A stretch of 64,000 bases of DNA, taken from Gemmatimonadota bacterium. GTDB taxonomy: Bacteria; Gemmatimonadota; Gemmatimonadetes; Gemmatimonadales; GWC2-71-9. Shown piece after piece: positions 1-8,374 of the stretch; within the stretch, counting starts at the first letter, position 1; each line of letters begins with the position of its first letter. The notes beneath the pieces are model-generated. The model saw only the letters and a program-made list of their open reading frames with translations. It was not told where the DNA came from and ran no database searches. A program made the position numbers and the translations under genes. Location: assembly GCA_039586365.1 (NCBI GenBank), contig JBDHKN010000009.1, positions 10,354 to 74,353 on the forward strand. The letters run 5' to 3'.

Positions 1-2
1 AC

Positions 3-416
3 AGCTACGACATGAACGACGATCCGATCCCGTACCAGCGCGAGAAGACAAGCCAGTCGCCGACCATGGTGTTGCGGGAGGACATGCCATTCATCGTGGT
101 GGGGTCGGCAGGCAGCAGCCGGATTCCAGGTTCCATCATGCGAGCCATCGTAAATGTCATCGATCACGGAATGACACTGGGGGAGGCATTGGCCGCGCGG
201 CGCTGGTTCATCTATGAGAACGAACTCCGGATCGAGGTGACAGACCTTGCGGAATCGACTTTGGGTTCGCTCCGAGACTACGGCTACACGCTGCGTACCT
301 ACGACGGATTGGACAGCTACTTCGCCAGCGTCCACGCCGTCATGTTCGACCGCTCAGCCGGAATTCTGCACGGGGCCGCCGACCCGAGGGACTTTGGAGC
401 GGCCGGAGGGCGCTAG
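3..416 (+). CDS. ggt: Gamma-glutamyltransferase family protein, C-terminal fragment (5'-truncated by window edge)
   Basis: Frame open from the window start. Has a TSQSPTMV motif (cf. SSMSPT), GSAGSSRI (cf. GSPGGSRI), NVIDHGM...AL..RR and terminal GAADPRD-G, all typical of the GGT small subunit. Confidence 0.85.
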   Translation, partial: SYDMNDDPIPYQREKTSQSPTMVLREDMPFIVVGSAGSSRIPGSIMRAIVNVIDHGMTLGEALAARRWFIYENELRIEVTDLAESTLGSLRDYGYTLRTYDGLDSYFASVHAVMFDRSAGILHGAADPRDFGAAGGR

Positions 417-801
417 TCACGGGAGCCGTGAGCTCCACGGTCGGCCTCAGGTCGCAGCCGAGTGGGCCCCCGGCCGAGACGTTTCACGTGCGGCGAGCTA
501 GCTCGGCGTTTGTACCTGTCACGGCTGCTCTCCGCGTCATGCTCGACAGTAGCTCGTTCGGGGTCGCTCCGGACCAGTGCACCCGCAAGACCGTCACATT
601 GGCTCCGTCCCTAGCGCCGTGCAGCGGGCCTGACAGTGCCGCACCCAGACTGGGATACAGAATGAAGAAGCTACGCGAGGTCCTTCAATTGATGTCATCC
701 TTTCTTGCCTTCGAAGCACGACCCAATTGGTATGGCGCTCAATCAAGACACACCAAGTCCCGCCACGAGCCTACCAGCCCTTTTCCCAGCGCTAGGCGCA
801 T

Positions 802-1665
802 GTGTTAGAGGACACCGATTCGCGATTTAGTGGGGACCTGGGAGTTCCTGGGGCCCCTTTTCTCCGCAGGCTGCGTCATTTCGCGTGCGGTTCCGGGGTA
901 ACAACTGAAGTTGGTGACACCGGATTGTATCATGCTGTGCGGCGATTCTTTGAGGCGTTCGACGATGAGCGTGAAGACCACCATGTATCTGTCTCGCTGA
1001 TGCCGATACCCGATGGCTATGCAGTGACACAGCCGGGGGAACGGACTGTAGTGTGTGACTCAACTTCAGATGCAATAGCCGCTTATGAGTTTGCCGTTAC
1101 AAACAACCTCCTCAGAGGCTGCGATCACGTTCAGATCCACTCGTCGGGCTCAGTCCTAAACGACCGAGCCGTTCTGGCTTTGGGGGCATCGGGCGCGGGA
1201 AAGTCCAGTCTTGCACTGGCGTGGCTAGCTGCGGGTTACCCCACTCTGGGAGACGACGTCGTGCATCTCGCTGCCGACGGTCGCGCGCTTCCCTTCAAGC
1301 GACTGTTCAAGGTCTCTCCCGAGATGCTGCAACTCGTGGGAATAGATCCGGCCACAACGCCATTCTGGAATGCGGAATGCGAAGAGGCATGGTACGATCC
1401 CGACGACGCGGCGGGTTGGGCAGACACAGCTCAAGTGGAATTGGTAGCGCTGTGTCGCAGGCAGGTCGGCGCCCGGCTGTCCGTTCGACCAGTCGATCGC
1501 ACCGCCGGACTCAATGCTCTCATGCATAGCCTGATGGAGACGTGCCGCTGTGCAGAGAATAGCCTCGATATTCTGGTGGAGGTCGTCAAGCACGCTCGCG
1601 TGGTTGAGGTCACCTTCGAGTCGGCTTTGCCAGCCGCAGCAGCCATCACAGAATACCTGCAATGA
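802..1665 (+). CDS. HPr kinase-related P-loop kinase
   Basis: HSSGSV...AVLALGASGAGKSSL (Walker A) followed by GYPTLGDDVV, the HprK/PEPCK-type DD signature. Stop overlaps the next gene (ATGA). GTG start uncertain. Confidence 0.8.
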   Translation: MLEDTDSRFSGDLGVPGAPFLRRLRHFACGSGVTTEVGDTGLYHAVRRFFEAFDDEREDHHVSVSLMPIPDGYAVTQPGERTVVCDSTSDAIAAYEFAVTNNLLRGCDHVQIHSSGSVLNDRAVLALGASGAGKSSLALAWLAAGYPTLGDDVVHLAADGRALPFKRLFKVSPEMLQLVGIDPATTPFWNAECEEAWYDPDDAAGWADTAQVELVALCRRQVGARLSVRPVDRTAGLNALMHSLMETCRCAENSLDILVEVVKHARVVEVTFESALPAAAAITEYLQ

Positions 1666-2774
1666 CAGTTGAGGTAGCTCGGTCGTTCGCGCAAATCCTC
1701 GCGCGGTCCGCGGCAGAACTCGGGAGCCGGGATCCAGGTGCTGGGAACCGGCTGGCCGCGGGCTTCGGGATCCTGGGGTTCCTTGCTCGCAATACCGGCG
1801 ATGGGCGGGACGAAGCACTGGAGGGCGCCAGACTACTTGCCGGGATTATCGAGTCTACGCTGTTCGAAGCGGCGGTTCAGATCTCGCGCGCGCTGTCGGT
1901 TGGGACGGTACCGCATTTCTTCGTGAAGGGGATCGCCCTGTCCGGTCGAGCGTACCGGTCCGGCGACCGAGAAATGGCTGACATCGACCTGCACGTGATG
2001 CCTAGCCTGTGGTCCAGAGCAGTCAATATCCTGAGCGATCTGGGCTACACATTGCTGCCGCCCGAAGAACAAGACGGACCCGCAGCTCTGCGAGCTGGAG
2101 TAGCGCTGCAAAGAGGCTCAGCGGGTTCGGAGATCACCGACATTGCAGTGGACCTCAGATGGGGCCTGGATCCGGTGAACCGATTGTTGCCACGGCCCGA
2201 TCTGCCCGTCCCGCAGACTGTCTGGAGAGACCTCGATCGGACAGGACCGATACCGGTGCCGTCCGATCACCATCACGCTGCGCTGATCGTTCACCACCTA
2301 GTCCATCACGACATGTTGCACGTTCGCGGCCTACTGGATCTAGCGCTGCTATGGAGTCGACTGTTACCCGAAGGTGGCAGGAAGTTCGAAGACTTGGCGC
2401 GCGAACTCGGGGTGCTGCGGGCTTCACGAATGCTGGGAAAGGTGCTGGTGAAACACTTCGATCTCTCACCGTGCGGACTGGAAGCTCCACCGGACGATGT
2501 GAGAAGTCGCAGGGCCCTGGCACTGCTCGAACCAGTACGTTGGTGCTGCTGGGCCGCGCGCGCCAGTGAGAGCGAGTTTGTGGAGATCACGTGGCTGCGC
2601 GTTCGGAGACGGTTACTGTTTCTCGACAGCTTGCGGTCAGTGCCGGCTCTGGTACAGGACGCGGTGCTTCCGCCCAGGGAGTACCTGCGTTGGCGCTGGC
2701 CGTATTCGAGATCGGCGGCCACAGCCTTGGGCCGGCATCTCAGTCGAGTGATTGCGAAGACTTTCGTGCGCTAG
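1662..2774 (+). CDS. Nucleotidyltransferase family protein (NTP_transf_5-like)
   Basis: FVKGIALSGRAY...REMADIDLHV matches the KG-x-L...Y...R-x-M-x-DIDL signature. Also has a His-rich HHLVHH...LLDL helix. Confidence 0.85.
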   Translation: MTVEVARSFAQILARSAAELGSRDPGAGNRLAAGFGILGFLARNTGDGRDEALEGARLLAGIIESTLFEAAVQISRALSVGTVPHFFVKGIALSGRAYRSGDREMADIDLHVMPSLWSRAVNILSDLGYTLLPPEEQDGPAALRAGVALQRGSAGSEITDIAVDLRWGLDPVNRLLPRPDLPVPQTVWRDLDRTGPIPVPSDHHHAALIVHHLVHHDMLHVRGLLDLALLWSRLLPEGGRKFEDLARELGVLRASRMLGKVLVKHFDLSPCGLEAPPDDVRSRRALALLEPVRWCCWAARASESEFVEITWLRVRRRLLFLDSLRSVPALVQDAVLPPREYLRWRWPYSRSAATALGRHLSRVIAKTFVR

Positions 2775-2825
2775 AGTCGCAGGGCTCGTTCTTGCCCGGC
2801 ATGAAGCGGTTTCCTAGTTTGCGGC

Positions 2826-3113
2826 ATGACCTCATCAACCTCTGACGTGGGTCCCAAGGGCCGTTCTGACGTGGTCTTCCGGCAACTCGATGATGGATGG
2901 GTGTTGTTTGACCCACGCGCGACGAAGCTTCATGCTTTGAACCTGTCCGCGGCGCTCGTGTGGGCGCACTGTGATGGCGGGTACGATGCAGACGGAATTG
3001 CCCAGGCACTCGCTGCATCGTTCGACCCGCCGGTTTCCATGTCCCGGGCCCGACAGGACGTCGACGCAACTCTGAAACGGTTTCGAGCAGCCGGACTCCT
3101 CGAGCCGAAGTGA
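2826..3113 (+). CDS. PqqD-family protein / stand-alone RiPP recognition element (RRE)
   Basis: 95 aa. VVFRQLDDGWVLFD...LHALNLSAALVWAHCDG...IAQALAASF...DVDATLKRFRAAGLL fits the PqqD fold (3 strands + 3 helices). Confidence 0.9.
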   Translation: MTSSTSDVGPKGRSDVVFRQLDDGWVLFDPRATKLHALNLSAALVWAHCDGGYDADGIAQALAASFDPPVSMSRARQDVDATLKRFRAAGLLEPK

Positions 3114-3117
3114 CTTA

Positions 3118-4269
3118 GTGCAGTACTATCGCGATCTCTTGGCCCAGGTGCCGCGGATAGAGGCGTTCCGTGCGGCGATCCGTCGCGTGGTCCGACCGGA
3201 CGACCGTGTACTGGAGGTGGGCACCGGATTGGGTACCTACGCCTTTTTCGCGGCTGACGCGGGCGCCGCGCGCGTGTGGGCGGTGGAAGGGAATGCGGTC
3301 GTGCACGTGGCCGAGACGATCGCGCGATTGAACGGTTATGGCGGGAAGATTGACTTCATGCGAGGCTGGATACCGGAGGTCCAGTTACCCGAGCGTGCCA
3401 CGGTTCTGATTTTTGAGGATTTCCCGGCCCGGCTGCTGGACAGCAGAACCTTCACCTTGCTCAGGAATCTGCATGAGTCATATCTCGAGGCTGGTGCCCG
3501 CGTGGTCCCGGCGAAGGCCCAGTTGTTCTTGGCACCAGTTGGTTTCGCGATGTCCGTTGATCTGCTGGGTGAGGCAGATGACGTAGCGTACGGGATCGAC
3601 TGGAAACCGAGTCGGGAGTATTGGGCGAATACGCCGCACCATACCGCCGTACCCGGACACGCCGTAGCTGGCGATCCGGTGGCTATTGGAGAGATCGACT
3701 TCGGCCTCCACCCGGATGCTGGGGTCTTGGGCGGCGAGGCCAGCTGGATCTGGGACCATGATGTCGTGGTTCATGGCCTGGCCTACTGGTTCGACTTGGA
3801 TCTTGGTGGAGATCAGCACCTGTCCAACGCACCCGGGGCCGAGCCGGCTTCTTGGGGCCAACTCCTGCTGTCCATCGACTCACCCATTACGGTAGCTGCG
3901 GGGGCGGAACTGCGAGCGGCGGTGGCCTGTGACAACTTCCCAGACGGTGCGCCTGGCTGGCTCAGGTGGAGTGCCAAGACTGCCGCGATGAGCGGTGGAG
4001 GCCACGAGTTCGCAGCGAGGCCGGCATCGTTCGCTGACCTCTACAACCAATCACCCGACGCCGTGCCGCGTTTGAGCGCGCAGGGGGAGCTGGAGCTGCA
4101 AGTAATGCGGCTCACAGACGGGAAGCGGACAATATGCCAGATTGCAGAGGAAGTGCGCCGGGTGCAGCCGCGATTGAGAGAGCTCGATGCCCAGCGCCTT
4201 GTGGTGCGCATGTTGGCGGGGAAACTTGAACAGCCTGCGTGGCGTGATGTTGCCGAGGCAGGAGGTTGA
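3118..4269 (+). CDS. PRMT-like SAM-dependent methyltransferase with a C-terminal RRE/winged-helix-like tail
   Basis: N-terminal RIEAFRAAI helix, VLEVGTGLG motif I, AGAARVWAVE post-I, IFEDF..LLD in the double-E loop position, VHGLAYWFDL...LSNAP...SWGQ beta-barrel/THW-loop equivalent, and a C-terminal TDGKRTICQIAEEV helix motif. Confidence 0.8.
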   Translation: MQYYRDLLAQVPRIEAFRAAIRRVVRPDDRVLEVGTGLGTYAFFAADAGAARVWAVEGNAVVHVAETIARLNGYGGKIDFMRGWIPEVQLPERATVLIFEDFPARLLDSRTFTLLRNLHESYLEAGARVVPAKAQLFLAPVGFAMSVDLLGEADDVAYGIDWKPSREYWANTPHHTAVPGHAVAGDPVAIGEIDFGLHPDAGVLGGEASWIWDHDVVVHGLAYWFDLDLGGDQHLSNAPGAEPASWGQLLLSIDSPITVAAGAELRAAVACDNFPDGAPGWLRWSAKTAAMSGGGHEFAARPASFADLYNQSPDAVPRLSAQGELELQVMRLTDGKRTICQIAEEVRRVQPRLRELDAQRLVVRMLAGKLEQPAWRDVAEAGG

Positions 4270-4272
4270 GGA

Positions 4273-4536
4273 ATGTCGCAGGAAGATAGACGAGCCTTTC
4301 TCAAGAAGCTGGCCAAAGGAACAGTTTACGCCGCTCCGGTGGTGCATTCGCTGGCGGCACCGCTCGACCTCGTGGGGCAGGGTAAATCGTCTGAACACAA
4401 GCGCGAACGCGGGAGCCGGGCAGCGACGGCGTCCCCCGGCGGGAGCAGCGTTACTCAGCAGACGGACATCGGTGCTCCGCCGCCGGGGCAGCAACCGCCG
4501 CCGGGGCAGCCTAACCGGCCGCCATTCCAGCGATAG
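4273..4536 (+). CDS. Small peptide, putative RiPP precursor/substrate with twin-Arg-like leader and Pro/Gln-rich tail
   Basis: GGAGG about 7 nt upstream of the ATG (plus GAGGA abutting it), 3 nt after the methyltransferase stop. Sequence MSQEDRRAFLKKLAKGTVYAAPVVHSLAAP... contains a YxxP motif. Confidence 0.7.
   Translation: MSQEDRRAFLKKLAKGTVYAAPVVHSLAAPLDLVGQGKSSEHKRERGSRAATASPGGSSVTQQTDIGAPPPGQQPPPGQPNRPPFQR
4477..4510 (+). repeat. Direct repeat CCGCCGCCGGGGCAGC x2 (18-nt period) encoding PPPGQ x2
   Basis: Copies read directly at 4477-4492 and 4495-4510. Confidence 0.9.
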
Positions 4537-5082
4537 TTCCAGGAGCCCTCGATGGAGTTCTGGGGCTCGCTACAACTTGATATCTGCCGTGCTCCCTCAG
4601 CGGGCTGTCGGGCGGGGGGAGTTGCCGGAGGTGCCGCCCGCCATTCCTGCATGGAAAGCTGAGCCAGCCTGGTTTCTCCCTCGCTTCTGAATTAGTCAGG
4701 AAACCAGTCTCCCTTCACGGCGCTCTGCCTGGCCAACTATGGGCCGTTTGAATCTCGTAGCAATCGGCGGGGCAGGCAGCGTTGGCGACGGGCAGCCAGA
4801 CTCACGGCGGCTCTCGCAGAACGGGTCTCCGTCGCGGTATTCAGCCGATCCATGCCTCGCGTCTTCGCTGGCGTTTGCCGGATCGCATCCCGTGTGTTCC
4901 AGGTCACCGCAGAAATCTGCGTCACATACCATCTTGTCGTAGTCGAGCTGGAGGTGCTGCGGGAGATGGATTCAGGAGAGGATTTGGTGGTTTTGGATCT
5001 CGATTGCTCTTGACCAATGGTCGCGAAGCGGATCATATTACCCGCCCCTTCCTGGCGTTCGTAGCAAAAGGATTTCAAGCAG

Positions 5083-5328
5083 ATGGCGTGGAGAGTAATC
5101 GACACAGACGGAGAAGAGTGGCAGGTCCAAGCCGCAGCCGAACGTAGAGCCAACACCAAGCTGTGGCAACTGAGCTTGTCTTTCCGGCCGCGGAGCTCGG
5201 ACCGGGAACCTCGAGCCATCTGGGCCCAGTATCCACTAGAATCTGTCTCGAAATCCAGTCTGTTTCAGGCAGCGGACCGCATTTCGGACGAGGACCTCAG
5301 GGAGATTCTCGTCCAACACATCTCCTGA
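5083..5328 (+). CDS. Small hypothetical protein
   Basis: 81 aa of protein-like composition (MAWRVIDTDGEEWQV...L.F...ISDEDLREIL). First of three co-oriented small ORFs. Confidence 0.75.
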   Translation: MAWRVIDTDGEEWQVQAAAERRANTKLWQLSLSFRPRSSDREPRAIWAQYPLESVSKSSLFQAADRISDEDLREILVQHIS

Positions 5329-5352
5329 CCGGTCGTTTGACTGGAGTTCGAC

Positions 5353-5607
5353 ATGCCAATCGCCCCTGTGCAGGACCTCCGCCGCATAGCCGAGGCGGTG
5401 GGACAGTTGCGCGGGCGTACAGTTGAGGACGTGCAAGTACGCTCAGATTGCCGTTTCCTGCGGATAGCGTTGGAGGGAGGACAGATCCTCCTGATTTCGG
5501 CATTGATTGATGAATTCGGTAAGCCGCGTCTGGACGTAGATCTACTGCGTGCCCCCGAAGAGTTGGCTCACAGGCAGCTTGAGGTGCCGTTTAGCGTCCA
5601 GGAATAG
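5353..5607 (+). CDS. Small hypothetical protein
   Basis: GGAG RBS upstream. 84 aa of globular beta-rich sequence, co-oriented with its neighbours. Confidence 0.7.
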   Translation: MPIAPVQDLRRIAEAVGQLRGRTVEDVQVRSDCRFLRIALEGGQILLISALIDEFGKPRLDVDLLRAPEELAHRQLEVPFSVQE

Positions 5608-5627
5608 CGCCACAACAAGGAGTTGGA

Positions 5628-6041
5628 ATGACCACCGGGCGAGCGCCCGAGCGACTCAGATTCGTCGATTTCGAGTTCGCGACGGAGGCGAGTGGGCAGT
5701 GTCACTCGCGAGTGGTGCTGGAATGGACGCCGGGAGCCTCGTTCGTGGGTGAAGCGAGGGGGTTGGCGTCCGCCGCCGGGGAGTTGAGATGTGCGGCCGA
5801 AGCCACGGTTGACGCACTTGAGAAGGCTGTGGAGGGGAAAGTGAAGCTGGAGCTACTTGGAGTTAAGGCTGTGAGGGCATTTGATTCAGTCGTCGTTATC
5901 GTTTCCCTGTCTTGCCACAACGGATTCGCGCAGCGCGTCGTGGGTTCCTATCTCTCGGCAGATGAGGTCCCCCGCGGGGCCGCCTTGGCGGTGCTGAATG
6001 CCACGAACCGCCTGCTCGGGAATATCGTCTTCGTCCGATGA
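5628..6041 (+). CDS. Hypothetical protein (duplicated alpha/beta unit ending A.A.L.A.NR)
   Basis: AAGGAG RBS. Stop overlaps the mltD start (ATGA). Two similar units (CAAEATVDALE / GAALAVLNATNR). Confidence 0.75.
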   Translation: MTTGRAPERLRFVDFEFATEASGQCHSRVVLEWTPGASFVGEARGLASAAGELRCAAEATVDALEKAVEGKVKLELLGVKAVRAFDSVVVIVSLSCHNGFAQRVVGSYLSADEVPRGAALAVLNATNRLLGNIVFVR

Positions 6042-7561
6042 CAAAGCCCTGTTGGACTAACCGTTGGCTCTACGCCGGCGGGGCGATGCTGATCCTCGCA
6101 CCGGCCTGTTCGCGCGGACCAAACGACTTGGCTATCCGGCCGGATTCGTCACAGGATGTACCCGAGGAAAGACCTGTGGCGGTTGCGGCGCCGGTTCCGT
6201 CACCGGAGGACTCCGCTGCAGACCTCAGGGCACTCGAAGCGCTTAAGAACCTGGAGTATCGCAGTGTGGCGAAGGGCGCCGACCATGTGCATGGAACTCT
6301 GACGGCGTCAGACCTAGGTGATGTTGCGTCCAGCTCGGGAATCACCCCACCACGCGCGACGCCAGGCCCACGTGGTGGACCGGCGCGAGCAGCTGGGCCG
6401 AGCTACGATATCGATGTAGAGTCGTACGCGGACCATGAAAGGGTCGAGTATTACAAGGAGTTCTTCCTGGGTCCCTCCCGGGAACGTTTCTCCATCTGGC
6501 TGGGGCGACTGAATCGATATGAGGGGATGATCAGGAACCGGTTCCGTGCCTATGGCGTTCCTGAGGACCTCGTGTATCTGGCCATGATCGAGAGTGGTTA
6601 CTCGAATACGGCCGTGTCCCGGGCCAGCGCAGTGGGGATGTGGCAGTTCATGGCGGGGACGGCTCCTCGCTACGGGCTCGTCGTAGATGAATGGGTGGAT
6701 GAGCGTCGGGATCCGTTCAAGGCAACCGATGCGGCTGCGCAGTACCTAGCGGAGGCGAAAGAGCAATTCGGCTCTTGGTACCTGGCAGCGGCGGCGTACA
6801 ACGGCGGCCCGAACCGAGTATTGCGGGGTATCCGGCGGCTGGGAGATACGCTGACGAGTGACGAGACGTTCTTCGAATTGTCGGACCGGCGCTGGCTTCG
6901 GCGCGAAACCCGCGACTATGTCCCCAAGCTCATAGCCGCAACTTTGATCGCCAAGGCGCCATTGAGCTCCGGGTTCGACAGCATCCCGTACCTGCAACCG
7001 CTGGTGTTCGACGAGATTACGGTTCCCGGCGCCACAGGCCTGGACGTTCTGGCCGACCTAGCGGATACGACGGTCAGGGCGCTGGTGGAGCTCAATCCGC
7101 ACTACTACCGCGGTGTCACACCTCCCAAGAGCAACGCGATTGTTCGGTTGCCGCGTGGCACCGGCAGTATGGTCGCACGGCGCTACGCCGAGTTGCCGCC
7201 GGAGGAGAGGGTGAACTTCCTCCAGCACAAGATCGCTAGGGGCGAGACACTTGGCGAGATCGGGCAGCGCCATGGAGTGAGCGTGAGGCTCTTGATGGCG
7301 GCCAATCCCGGTGTGGAGCCACGGCGCCTGCGGATTGGGCAGCGGCTCGTAATCCCCGTTAGCTCAGCCGCAAGAGCTGCTCCCAGGTCGGCACCAAGCG
7401 TGCTGCGATCTGGTACCCGCTACCATTTAGTCAGCTGGGGCGAGAGCCTGTGGGTGATCGCTCGTAGGTATGGAGTGACGGTCGAGAACCTGCTGCGTTG
7501 GAATGGTATGGGCCGGGACGATGTGTTGCACGCAGGTCGGAGGATAGTGGTAGCGCCGTAG
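6038..7561 (+). CDS. mltD: Membrane-bound lytic murein transglycosylase D-like (SLT + two LysM), probable lipoprotein
   Basis: LAMIESG catalytic Glu, AVGMWQFM, AAYNGG, ETRDYVPK, two LysM repeats (HKIARGETL; HLVSWGESLW), and a lipobox-like LAPAC. Confidence 0.9.
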   Translation: MTKPCWTNRWLYAGGAMLILAPACSRGPNDLAIRPDSSQDVPEERPVAVAAPVPSPEDSAADLRALEALKNLEYRSVAKGADHVHGTLTASDLGDVASSSGITPPRATPGPRGGPARAAGPSYDIDVESYADHERVEYYKEFFLGPSRERFSIWLGRLNRYEGMIRNRFRAYGVPEDLVYLAMIESGYSNTAVSRASAVGMWQFMAGTAPRYGLVVDEWVDERRDPFKATDAAAQYLAEAKEQFGSWYLAAAAYNGGPNRVLRGIRRLGDTLTSDETFFELSDRRWLRRETRDYVPKLIAATLIAKAPLSSGFDSIPYLQPLVFDEITVPGATGLDVLADLADTTVRALVELNPHYYRGVTPPKSNAIVRLPRGTGSMVARRYAELPPEERVNFLQHKIARGETLGEIGQRHGVSVRLLMAANPGVEPRRLRIGQRLVIPVSSAARAAPRSAPSVLRSGTRYHLVSWGESLWVIARRYGVTVENLLRWNGMGRDDVLHAGRRIVVAP

Positions 7562-7660
7562 TGGGGGCCGCATGAGGCGCGCGAACTGTAGGGGCGCAGG
7601 AGATCGGGTCGGGACGTTACCCGCACCTCTTGAATCACGCAGATTCCCGCTGAGTCCGCT

Positions 7661-8374
7661 TCAATTCCCTCCTGGATACCCTTCCATCAATGACGACGGG
7701 TAGCCGTTGTCGGGATTCTGTCCTTCCTCCAACAGCGTCTTGATTCTGGTGGGCCCCCGGTTGTAGGCCAGCAGCGCCAGACGCATGTCACCGTAGGTTT
7801 CCATCAGGTCGCGCAGGAATCGGAAACCGATCCTCAGGTTGGTTTCCGGCTCATAGAGTTGTTCGGCTGTGATGGAGGGATCGTAAAAACGCGCTGTTGC
7901 AACCTGAACCTGGGCCAAACCGAGAGCTTTGGCTGTGCTCGTGGCCCGCGGGTTGAATCCACTCTCCAAGTTCACCAAGCGGAATCCCAGTTCCGGATCG
8001 ATTCCCTCACGGAGTGCGATGTCGTAAACCAGAGCAGTGAAATCGGCAGGAATCCGATAGCGTGTGGAGTAGAGCAATAGCGATTCGGCACGCTCGAGCT
8101 TGAGTCGGACCAACTCCAATTCAGCCGTTGTCGAGTCGAGTGTGGTCCGCAGCCTCGCGTATTCGGAAAGGACGGCCGCACCAGTGTAGGTCTCGGATTC
8201 CGCTGATGCCGTCGCCCGGGGTGGCCATCCTCCTACCACGGTCGCGAACAGAATGAGTGCTGCAAACAGGGCCAATCCCCGCAGTATCAACTTCTGTGTT
8301 GCCGAGAATCGGTTCCGACCGTGCCGCGGAGCTACGGTTGCCTCAGCGATCAGGCGCTTTGTCAGGTCCACCAT
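7661..8374 (-). CDS. Lytic transglycosylase (SLT domain) with N-terminal TM helix and coiled coil
   Basis: LVNLESGFNP.A.S...ALGLAQV...NLRIG...ALLAYNRGP SLT motifs. Confidence 0.85.
   Translation of the reverse strand: MVDLTKRLIAEATVAPRHGRNRFSATQKLILRGLALFAALILFATVVGGWPPRATASAESETYTGAAVLSEYARLRTTLDSTTAELELVRLKLERAESLLLYSTRYRIPADFTALVYDIALREGIDPELGFRLVNLESGFNPRATSTAKALGLAQVQVATARFYDPSITAEQLYEPETNLRIGFRFLRDLMETYGDMRLALLAYNRGPTRIKTLLEEGQNPDNGYPSSLMEGYPGGN

Follow-up and report, generated by a model that had tools for sequence, protein, structure and literature searches.

The DNA analyzed here (hereafter the window) is a stretch of 64,000 nucleotides from a Gemmatimonadota bacterium (GenBank assembly GCA_039586365.1, contig JBDHKN010000009.1, positions 10,354 to 74,353). 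Near its start, we found a five-gene operon (802-4536, + strand) that encodes, in this order, an HprK-like kinase, an NTP_transf_5 nucleotidyltransferase, a PqqD-type recognition element for peptides that are made by ribosomes and modified after translation (RiPP recognition element, RRE), a methyltransferase with the protein arginine methyltransferase (PRMT) fold, and, as the last gene, a peptide of 87 amino acids (aa). The five genes are tightly packed, with a 4-nt overlap followed by gaps of 51, 4, and 3 nt. A first-pass annotation, made from the sequence alone, had described the peptide as a putative precursor with a leader that serves RRE recognition and possibly also export by the twin-arginine translocation (Tat) pathway. 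The present work concerns this peptide, its leader, and its relationship to the four genes upstream.

The peptide gene (4273..4536, +) runs from an ATG start through 87 codons to a TAG stop and is defined by its open reading frame (ORF), homology, and dN/dS. Its translation is identical to the 87 residues quoted in the first-pass annotation, and all features named there are present, namely D5-R6-R7-A8-F9-L10-K11, Y19-A-A-P22, and the absence of Cys. A Shine-Dalgarno sequence, AGGAGG (4260..4265, +), can be read directly 7 nt before the ATG, and the methyltransferase stop codon TGA (4267-4269) leaves 3 nt between the two genes. GAGG-type sites precede the start in most relatives, and an ATG or GTG is found 3-5 codons before the twin arginines in all of them. 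The gene is single-copy in its genome; two copies were observed in G333, G387, and G159, and the pair in G333 is arranged in tandem (C10:9785-10309) beside its RRE.

Matches at E ≤ 0.01 comprised 21 proteins of 66-87 aa, and a profile search against 1.84 billion cluster representatives matched 142 clusters at E ≤ 1e-3; of these, 68 reached E ≤ 1e-10 and none reached 1e-30. These 142 consist of 137 short representatives (40-154 aa), four unrelated repeat proteins, and one methyltransferase-peptide fusion, which gives a family of about 140 clusters (50% identity), nearly all of 50-130 aa. Three rejected candidates (P0098, P0125, and P0158) are repeat proteins that match profile positions 14-64 only, and P0153 (4,900 aa with nine matched stretches) was dropped on the search table alone; all stand outside the 137. 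At default thresholds, neither Pfam nor NCBIfam assigned the peptide to a family. Across the window and the 20 Gemmatimonadota loci described below, codons 2-43 had a median pairwise dN/dS of 0.24 (145 pairs) and the tail one of 0.68 (159 pairs), with synonymous sites near saturation and an uncertain tail alignment. By this measure the N-terminal part is under purifying selection, and on the evidence of conservation ORF 4273-4536 is a real, conserved gene.

Family alignments bore out the expectation of a conserved leader followed by a variable core. The twin-arginine consensus R6-R7-A-F-L-K11 (4288..4305, +) corresponds to RR in 131/137 short representatives and to RRx[FLMVI] in 127/137, and in 126 of the 137 the aromatic residue follows RR at a constant spacing of 13. 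R6, R7, F9, L13, A14, Y19, P22, and P30 are invariant in an alignment of 38 sequences (alignment A2). Position frequencies relative to Tyr were calculated from the 128 of 137 short representatives that fit the pattern RR, 11 residues, Y/F/W, two residues, and P; RR at -13/-12 and P at +3 are thus 100% by selection. The aromatic position itself is Y in 88%, F in 9%, and W in 2%. Upstream of it, F is found in 86% at -10, L in 83% at -9, and A in 84% at -5; downstream, the values are 92% I/V at +5, 97% S/T at +7, 85% P at +11, 92% L/A/V at +14, 91% A/G/S at +16, and 65% Q at +17.

The predicted RRE-binding motif, Y19-A-A-P22-V-V24 (4327..4344, +), lies within a stretch of 16 uncharged residues (G16-L31) and matches the pattern [Y/W]xxPx[L/V/I/F/A]. 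This pattern is bound by the RREs of lasso B1 proteins and of LppB from the Bacillota system of linear polyphosphorylated peptides (LPP; Popov et al., 2026; PMC13381572). In LPP crystal structures, the RRE cleft accommodates the Tyr and the Pro of YxxP, and binding is weakened by the substitutions Y-16A and P-13A (PMC13381572). The role assigned to YxxP by the first-pass annotation, on the model of lasso leaders, is thereby documented for LPP, the closest known system. Complex prediction for the RRE and residues 1-48 of the peptide gave a score of 0.59 (runs 0.59, 0.59, and 0.61), rated as weak support, compared with 0.00 for the best of three controls; contact agreement among runs was at least 92%, and the partner had a predicted local distance difference test (pLDDT) value of at least 65. 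The mark used for this rating was reached by 116/157 solved complexes and 2/215 mismatches. Taking motif and models together, the RRE probably binds the YxxP region.

The same leader has the layout of a Tat signal. The twin-arginine consensus is (S/T)RRxFLK, and signal-peptide cleavage follows a rule of small residues at -3 and -1. The peptide has an RRxFL n-region, an uncharged stretch, Pro at -6, an aliphatic or small residue at -3, and a small residue at -1, which fits a Tat signal of 35 residues with a predicted signal-peptidase-I-type cleavage site after G35 in L33-V-G35-Q36 (4369..4380, +), placed by family pattern fit only. The cut guessed in the first-pass annotation, between Q36 and G37, lies one residue beyond the site that fits family conservation, and the h-region that it called weak is mid-range among the genome's own RR candidates: the best 14-residue hydropathy of the leader is 1.35, the 30th of 67 RRxF-type N-termini in a crude list that includes some non-genes. 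Its description of the leader as Tat-like held up, since the signal anatomy is complete and the genome encodes TatC (217.5 bits); two bacterial-type signal peptidases I were also found. TIGR01409 (TAT_signal_seq) matched 9/21 relatives weakly (best E 0.012). Among protein language-model neighbors, the named clusters are Tat-signal proteins (0.79-0.82) and the best overall are unnamed (0.90-0.91), which is informative at the level of a lead only. Judging from these sequence features, we lean slightly toward genuine Tat export of the peptide.

Of the four upstream genes, that of the HprK-like P-loop kinase (287 aa; 802..1665, +) is the first, overlaps the next by 4 nt, and contains a Walker-A-like GASGAGKSS; it is found upstream of the peptide in 19/20 Gemmatimonadota loci. 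The nucleotidyltransferase (370 aa; 1662..2774, +) matches NTP_transf_5 (PF14907, E 2.6e-17, 63.7 bits, cut-off 31.2) and has a tblastn match in 17/20 of these loci. The discrete PqqD-family RRE (95 aa; 2826..3113, +) matches Pfam PqqD (1.3e-13, 51.5 bits) and TIGR04353 PqqD_rel_X (40.3 bits, over the cut-off of 35), and reaches 48.6 bits against lasso_PqqD_Strm (NF033530), under the cut-off of 70. Its family profile matches TfuB1 (6jx3, 7.6e-6) and LppB (9x8z, 1.9e-3), and by profile comparison the RRE is related to LppB and the lasso B1 proteins. We know of no role of a discrete RRE beyond peptide binding.

The fourth gene encodes a PRMT-fold S-adenosylmethionine-dependent methyltransferase (383 aa; 3118..4269, +; PRMT_C 32.1 bits, cut-off 27) with a C-terminal three-helix tail (residues ~305-366). 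Its family profile matches PRMT6 (1.5e-39) and CARM1 (5e-35) in the PDB, and an AF2 model (pLDDT 86) has PRMT6 as its top Foldseek matches (E 1e-25, TM 0.65/0.75). In the double-E loop of PRMTs, two Glu residues clamp the guanidinium group. In the operon enzyme E100 is invariant, and the position of the second Glu is S109, which varies among S, E, A, and G in 19 homologues; because this second Glu is not conserved, arginine is an unsafe guess for the substrate. Only a weak likeness links the tail to the PqqD helices (hhalign probability 21%, E 0.001, 41 columns); as a weak lead, the tail may be a second, degenerate peptide-binding element. We also observed an L-T-D-G-x-R-(S/T) motif in the tail region (window 4030-4269, methyltransferase residues 305-383).

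By Pfam scan, the operon ORFs include neither a peptidase nor a transporter, and a transporter was likewise not found in the window flanks or among the genes upstream in five related loci. TIGR02228, the model of the archaeal-type signal peptidase I, matched nothing in the genome (86% complete). A listing of sequencing runs gave 24 DNA-type entries from 14 studies and none of RNA, an outcome that is silent on expression. An Rfam scan of positions 1-8000 gave no match, and a promoter and terminator scan of 300-5300 yielded nothing usable, with two promoter-like sites (0.8 expected) and one minus-strand terminator-like site (3.1 expected). The 546-nt gap after the peptide gene (4537-5082) has no terminator-like site or Rfam match and contains a promoter-like site (5010-5039). 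Beyond it, three ORFs of 81, 84, and 137 aa (within 5083-6041) belong to no family except for a weak LeuA_dimer match of the third. These three ORFs are conserved and, in 17 loci, always precede a lytic transglycosylase with SLT and LysM domains (6038-7561 in the window).

From Q36 onward, the peptide has 52 residues with 6 Ser, 3 Thr, 5 Arg, and 10 Pro, and across the family this post-leader stretch is of low complexity and rich in Ser, Gly, Met, Lys, or His. The first-pass annotation had regarded the many Ser/Thr as kinase targets, a view that conservation does not support for most of them, with only S26 conserved family-wide and S40 in close relatives. S26 (Tyr+7; 4348..4350, +) is the best conserved hydroxyl residue (S/T in the 97% given above for the 128 representatives; Thr in 63% of members) and is a candidate RRE contact or phospho-acceptor. 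The LPP kinase rejected Thr (PMC13381572). By analogy with Ser3 in the core of LPP, S39-S40 (4387..4392, +) is a candidate site of phosphorylation, and it fits the LPP geometry, in which a Ser follows the cleavage point by 3-5 residues. S40 is kept by at least 90% of 21 close relatives (alignment A1), and a Ser at Tyr+20 is present in only 43% of the family as a whole. The Arg/RG cluster R44-E-R46-G47-S-R49, previously suggested as a PRMT-type target, is present in the window peptide; it falls in a variable, gapped region, and the enzyme lacks the second double-E Glu. The methyl acceptor is probably not this RG site. Because R6 and R7 are the only invariant arginines, we also considered a methylation gate acting on the twin arginines, an idea of very low probability that would be striking if correct.

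Toward the C-terminus, the duplicated PPPGQ reported earlier was confirmed in two copies. PPPGQ-Q-PPPGQ (P69-Q73 and P75-Q79; 4477..4509, +) stems from a 15-nt direct DNA repeat, CCGCCGCCGGGGCAG, at 4477-4491 and 4495-4509, and is the window form of a C-terminal Pro-rich motif. Most family members end in APW[DE]xPPPGG, and the window clade has lost the Trp. A "PW" occurs in the last 45 aa of 91/137 representatives and a PPG-type motif in 88/137; P77 is invariant in 38 sequences. The variable middle part of many relatives (P0022, L016:8001-8249, P0042, P0099, and many others) is Met/Gly-, His-, or Lys/Gly-rich, with MGMGMG runs, a His9 run, or KGKGKG. Such a composition is reminiscent of periplasmic copper- or metal-binding segments and does not occur in the window peptide.

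For the distribution of the operon, a degenerate-pattern scan of one genome per species gave 24 loci: 20 from Gemmatimonadota, three from Actinomycetota, and L024. The last of these (Solibacteraceae, E 2e-4) has no in-frame start codon or RR motif, was treated as a chance match, and was left out of later counts. The order hprK-ntp-pqqD-methyltransferase-peptide, traced by tblastn with the window proteins, is kept in 17/20 Gemmatimonadota loci; of the three exceptions, L005 is cut by a contig end, L016 has no ntp match, and L019 is rearranged and also has no ntp match. The genes upstream of the operon differ or are unrelated in the five loci examined, and a block of unrelated genes of ~4.5 kb is present between the peptide and the downstream genes in 9/20 loci. 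Given these differing upstream genes and the inserted downstream block, the five genes therefore behave as one module.

The 4.5-kb block (e.g., L001:5322-9756, L002:8273-12732, and seven others) separates the peptide gene from the homologue of the window ORF 5083-5328, and it is absent from the window and seven loci. By eye, its content includes pyridine-nucleotide-disulfide-oxidoreductase-like, DedA/TVP38-like, DUF547-like, glycosyltransferase, and DUF2064-like genes. No transporter was seen in the blocks of L001 and L002, as judged by eye from their ORF lists.

In an even sample of the phylum, the peptide was found in 19/401 genomes and 16/148 genera, a patchy distribution. A strong match to the RRE clade of the operon lies on the same contig within 3 kb of the peptide in 16 of these 19 genomes. 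In two of the remaining three (G159 and G097), peptide and RRE are on different contigs, and in the third (G345) the peptide match is weak (E 1.3e-4 in a 369-aa frame) and probably represents an ordinary Tat protein, which is still counted among the 19. The RRE profile matched 107/401 genomes, a number that includes weak matches to other RRE systems as well as one genome flagged as unpublished (G157) and that supports no other claim made here. The first-pass annotation had tied its reading to the occurrence of homologous leaders near PqqD genes; such leaders adjoin PqqD in 16/19 genomes of the phylum and in all three actinobacterial loci.

In each of the three actinobacterial loci, a peptide or a protein encoded near PqqD carries RRAFLKKLAIGxAFAxP and then AYAQ or SAA. 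L021 and L022 also encode NTP_transf_5, L021 has an HprK-like domain (36.6 bits), and all three loci contain glycosyltransferases. In L023 (7959-8618), an RRAFLKRLAxGxAFxxP leader heads a protein of 259 aa that also has a Big_3_5 Ig-like domain and, at its C-terminus, a hydrophobic segment, and the gene is divergently adjacent to the PqqD gene. Big_3_5-type Ig-like domains are typical of extracytoplasmic proteins. This gene suggests that the leader can be attached to whole proteins. A different kind of fusion was found in P0103 (446 aa), in which a methyltransferase of the PRMT fold runs on, in the same frame, into a peptide of the family. The C-terminus of its methyltransferase part looks frameshifted, and in a mixed alignment methyltransferase tails were misplaced onto the peptide; P0103 is probably a frameshifted or read-through gene call. 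It confirms the adjacency of methyltransferase and peptide in one more genome.

That the peptide is the substrate of the operon we consider likely, and it is most likely the substrate of an LPP-like pathway. Our preferred explanation, with a probability of roughly 0.55, is that it is a ribosomal substrate of the four upstream-encoded enzymes, with a 35-residue leader that serves for RRE docking and then for Tat export. In the manner of LppB and the lasso B1 proteins, the RRE would take up Y19-x-x-P22-x-V24 as an additional beta-strand and present the peptide to the enzymes. The kinase would phosphorylate a Ser near the leader/core junction, by analogy with LppK, with S39/S40 as the first candidate and S26 as the alternative, and the nucleotidyltransferase and methyltransferase would add further groups. 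Once released by the RRE, the leader would act as a Tat signal through RRAFLK, the uncharged G16-L31, and P30, and a housekeeping signal peptidase I would cut it between G35 and Q36. The product would be a hydrophilic, Pro/Gly/Gln-rich modified peptide of ~52 residues outside the cytoplasm. Tat and LepB would thus replace the dedicated signal peptidase I (SpI)-like peptidase and ATP-binding cassette (ABC) exporter of the Bacillota LPP clusters, and a leader that is a Tat signal would explain an operon that has neither. More tentatively, and at somewhat less than even odds, we propose that a RiPP leader and a Tat signal have merged, such that the RRE is a proofreading chaperone that keeps the leader from the translocase until modification is done. 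For the dual leader of the first-pass annotation, what stands is the comparative evidence; binding, phosphorylation, methylation, and export are conclusions that we draw by inference.

Several observations weigh against this explanation. The kinase falls below family cut-offs, both for Hpr_kinase_C in Pfam (E 8e-4, 19.4 bits, cut-off 33.3) and for TIGR04352 HprK_rel_A in NCBIfam (E 6e-6, 25.5 bits over residues 89-272, cut-off 200). The window peptide has no TIGR01409 match, its only hit being TIGR02811 at E 0.16. K12 and K15 are two extra basic residues between the RR motif and the uncharged stretch, and the c-region has an Asp and no basic residue. Ordinary Tat signals do not show so rigid an RR-13-Tyr spacing or so nearly invariant a sequence, and these features could mean that the whole leader is an element for enzyme recognition only. 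S26 lies inside the would-be h-region, and its phosphorylation would produce a charged h-region, which argues against export of the intact signal. Only 18 of the 157 solved complexes, but both passing mismatches, reached the mark with a score of 0.60 or lower, and the formally weak pass of the RRE-peptide pair may reflect memory of similar solved RRE-leader complexes. The SpI-like peptidase counts as "not found" only, because the genome is 86% complete. Lastly, no activity of the LPP nucleotidyltransferase was seen in a heterologous host (PMC13381572).

Some of these points lead to a reading in which the peptide is the same kind of precursor and its Tat-likeness is not used for export. The N-terminal 35-43 residues would then be a pure enzyme-recognition leader: an amphipathic RRAFLKKLAK helix would be recognized by the kinase, the nucleotidyltransferase, or the tail of the methyltransferase and YxxP by the RRE, and the modified peptide would be cytoplasmic or leave by an unlinked route. 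The fixed RR-13-Tyr-17-Q spacing and nearly invariant leader are as such a reading would have them, as are a conserved basic residue at Tyr-4 and S/T at Tyr+7 within the "h-region", the failure of the window peptide against TIGR01409, and a weakly RRE-like methyltransferase tail in need of a binding partner. However, the RRxFL match (127/137), the uncharged stretch, the Pro at -6, and the residues at -1/-3 would all have to be coincidence, the operon lacks a peptidase and an exporter, both of which LPP clusters need (PMC13381572), and L023 carries the same leader on an Ig-domain protein. We therefore regard this reading as rather unlikely. The opposite simplification, an ordinary small Tat-secreted protein that its neighbors leave unmodified, with synteny due to shared ancestry and enzymes acting on another substrate, gains from the facts that most loci come from one order, that the downstream genes (5083-7561) are also syntenic, and that modification of the peptide is inferred only. 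It seems quite improbable in view of a five-gene block that occurs in only 19/401 sampled genomes with differing flanks where examined, a leader type that recurs beside PqqD, HprK-like, and NTP_transf_5 genes in another phylum, and an RRE motif of the published kind in the peptide.

A lasso-peptide precursor is suggested by the YxxPxV leader motif and by an RRE whose best matches are the lasso B1 model (48.6 bits) and TfuB1, so the lasso analogy of the first-pass annotation stands at the level of the motif. It fails at the level of the operon, where no lasso macrolactam cyclase or B2 cysteine peptidase was found among the ORFs; the sole Transglut_core3 match of the genome, at a borderline 25.6 bits, lies on a different contig (C55), and the NF033530 score stays under its cut-off of 70. 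No lasso fold is expected because the operon has neither cyclase nor B2 peptidase, and we consider this alternative most improbable. That the ORF is a chance product of GC-rich DNA and no gene at all could draw on overlapping ORFs of 147 and 167 aa in other frames and on the weak discrimination by codon-position GC, but it is already contradicted by the Shine-Dalgarno site, the conservation, the dN/dS of 0.24, and 142 clusters of matching length, which leaves it a negligible probability.

In the literature searched, including two RRE-mining papers in which the terms looked up did not occur (PMC7470986 and PMC12710340), we found no account of a RiPP leader with twin arginines, of an enzyme with the PRMT fold within an RRE cluster, or of this cluster in Gemmatimonadota. 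If the preferred explanation is correct, RRE-leader recognition and Tat-signal quality control would be one event in a family of ~140 clusters, and two separate fields, RiPP leader recognition and Tat signal proofreading, would be linked. The explanation also accounts for the missing peptidase and exporter, and the locus gives a bacterial PRMT-fold enzyme its first candidate context with a peptide substrate.

Among known systems, the Tat signals with binding chaperones of the TorD/DmsD/NapD type share with the peptide an RRxFLK motif, an uncharged stretch, and a Pro before a small-x-small site, and in both cases a cytoplasmic protein keeps hold of the signal, or is predicted to do so, for as long as the cargo is incomplete. 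Here the holder would be a winged helix-turn-helix RRE in place of a chaperone of the TorD family or NapD type; a disordered modified peptide takes the place of a cofactor enzyme as cargo, and the signal is sequence-invariant. Phosphorylated or phosphoglycosylated lasso peptides of the paeninodin and pseudomycoidin type have in common with the operon a B1-type RRE, an HprK-type kinase, NTP_transf_5, and the [Y/W]xxP leader motif; their acceptor is a C-terminal Ser, whereas the peptide here ends in Arg. Compared with the eukaryotic type I PRMTs (PRMT6, CARM1, and PRMT1), the operon methyltransferase has the same Rossmann and beta-barrel fold, the first double-E Glu, and the Trp of the THW-like loop, but it lacks a conserved second Glu (Ser109) and has an extra C-terminal helical tail. 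In the HPr-rel-A system of NCBIfam (TIGR04352 kinase A and TIGR04353 chaperone), the operon RRE passes the chaperone model (40.3 vs. 35) and the kinase is not an equivalog (25.5 vs. 200); the system name gives no substrate.

Of all published systems, LPP of Bacillota (lppA-K-B-S-D-N; Popov et al., Nat Commun 2026, PMC13381572) comes closest, and the operon shares with it genes for an RRE, an HprK-type kinase, and an NTP transferase. LPP precursors have 35-200 aa, an N-terminal motif YxxPxVLxHQxIxFETxxS, and variable C-termini; they are cleaved after T-1, and the kinase polyphosphorylates Ser3 of the core (PMC13381572). LPP has been described as restricted to Bacillota (PMC13381572). Several differences are evident: the operon has no archaeal-type SpI-like peptidase (LppS) or MsbA-like ABC exporter, the LxHQxIxFETxxS remainder of the motif is absent, the Ser is at Tyr+20/+21 here vs. 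+18 in LPP, the leader is longer and carries RRxFLK, a PRMT-fold methyltransferase is added, and the operon, from Gemmatimonadota, is known from genes alone. On the other hand, neither system has a macrolactam cyclase, both have precursors with a conserved YxxPxV N-terminus, a variable C-terminus, and a Ser a few residues past the predicted cleavage, and leader removal by a signal-peptidase-type enzyme is predicted for the operon as it is known for LPP. The operon may thus represent a version of an LPP-type system in a Gram-negative phylum, with a clear candidate substrate.

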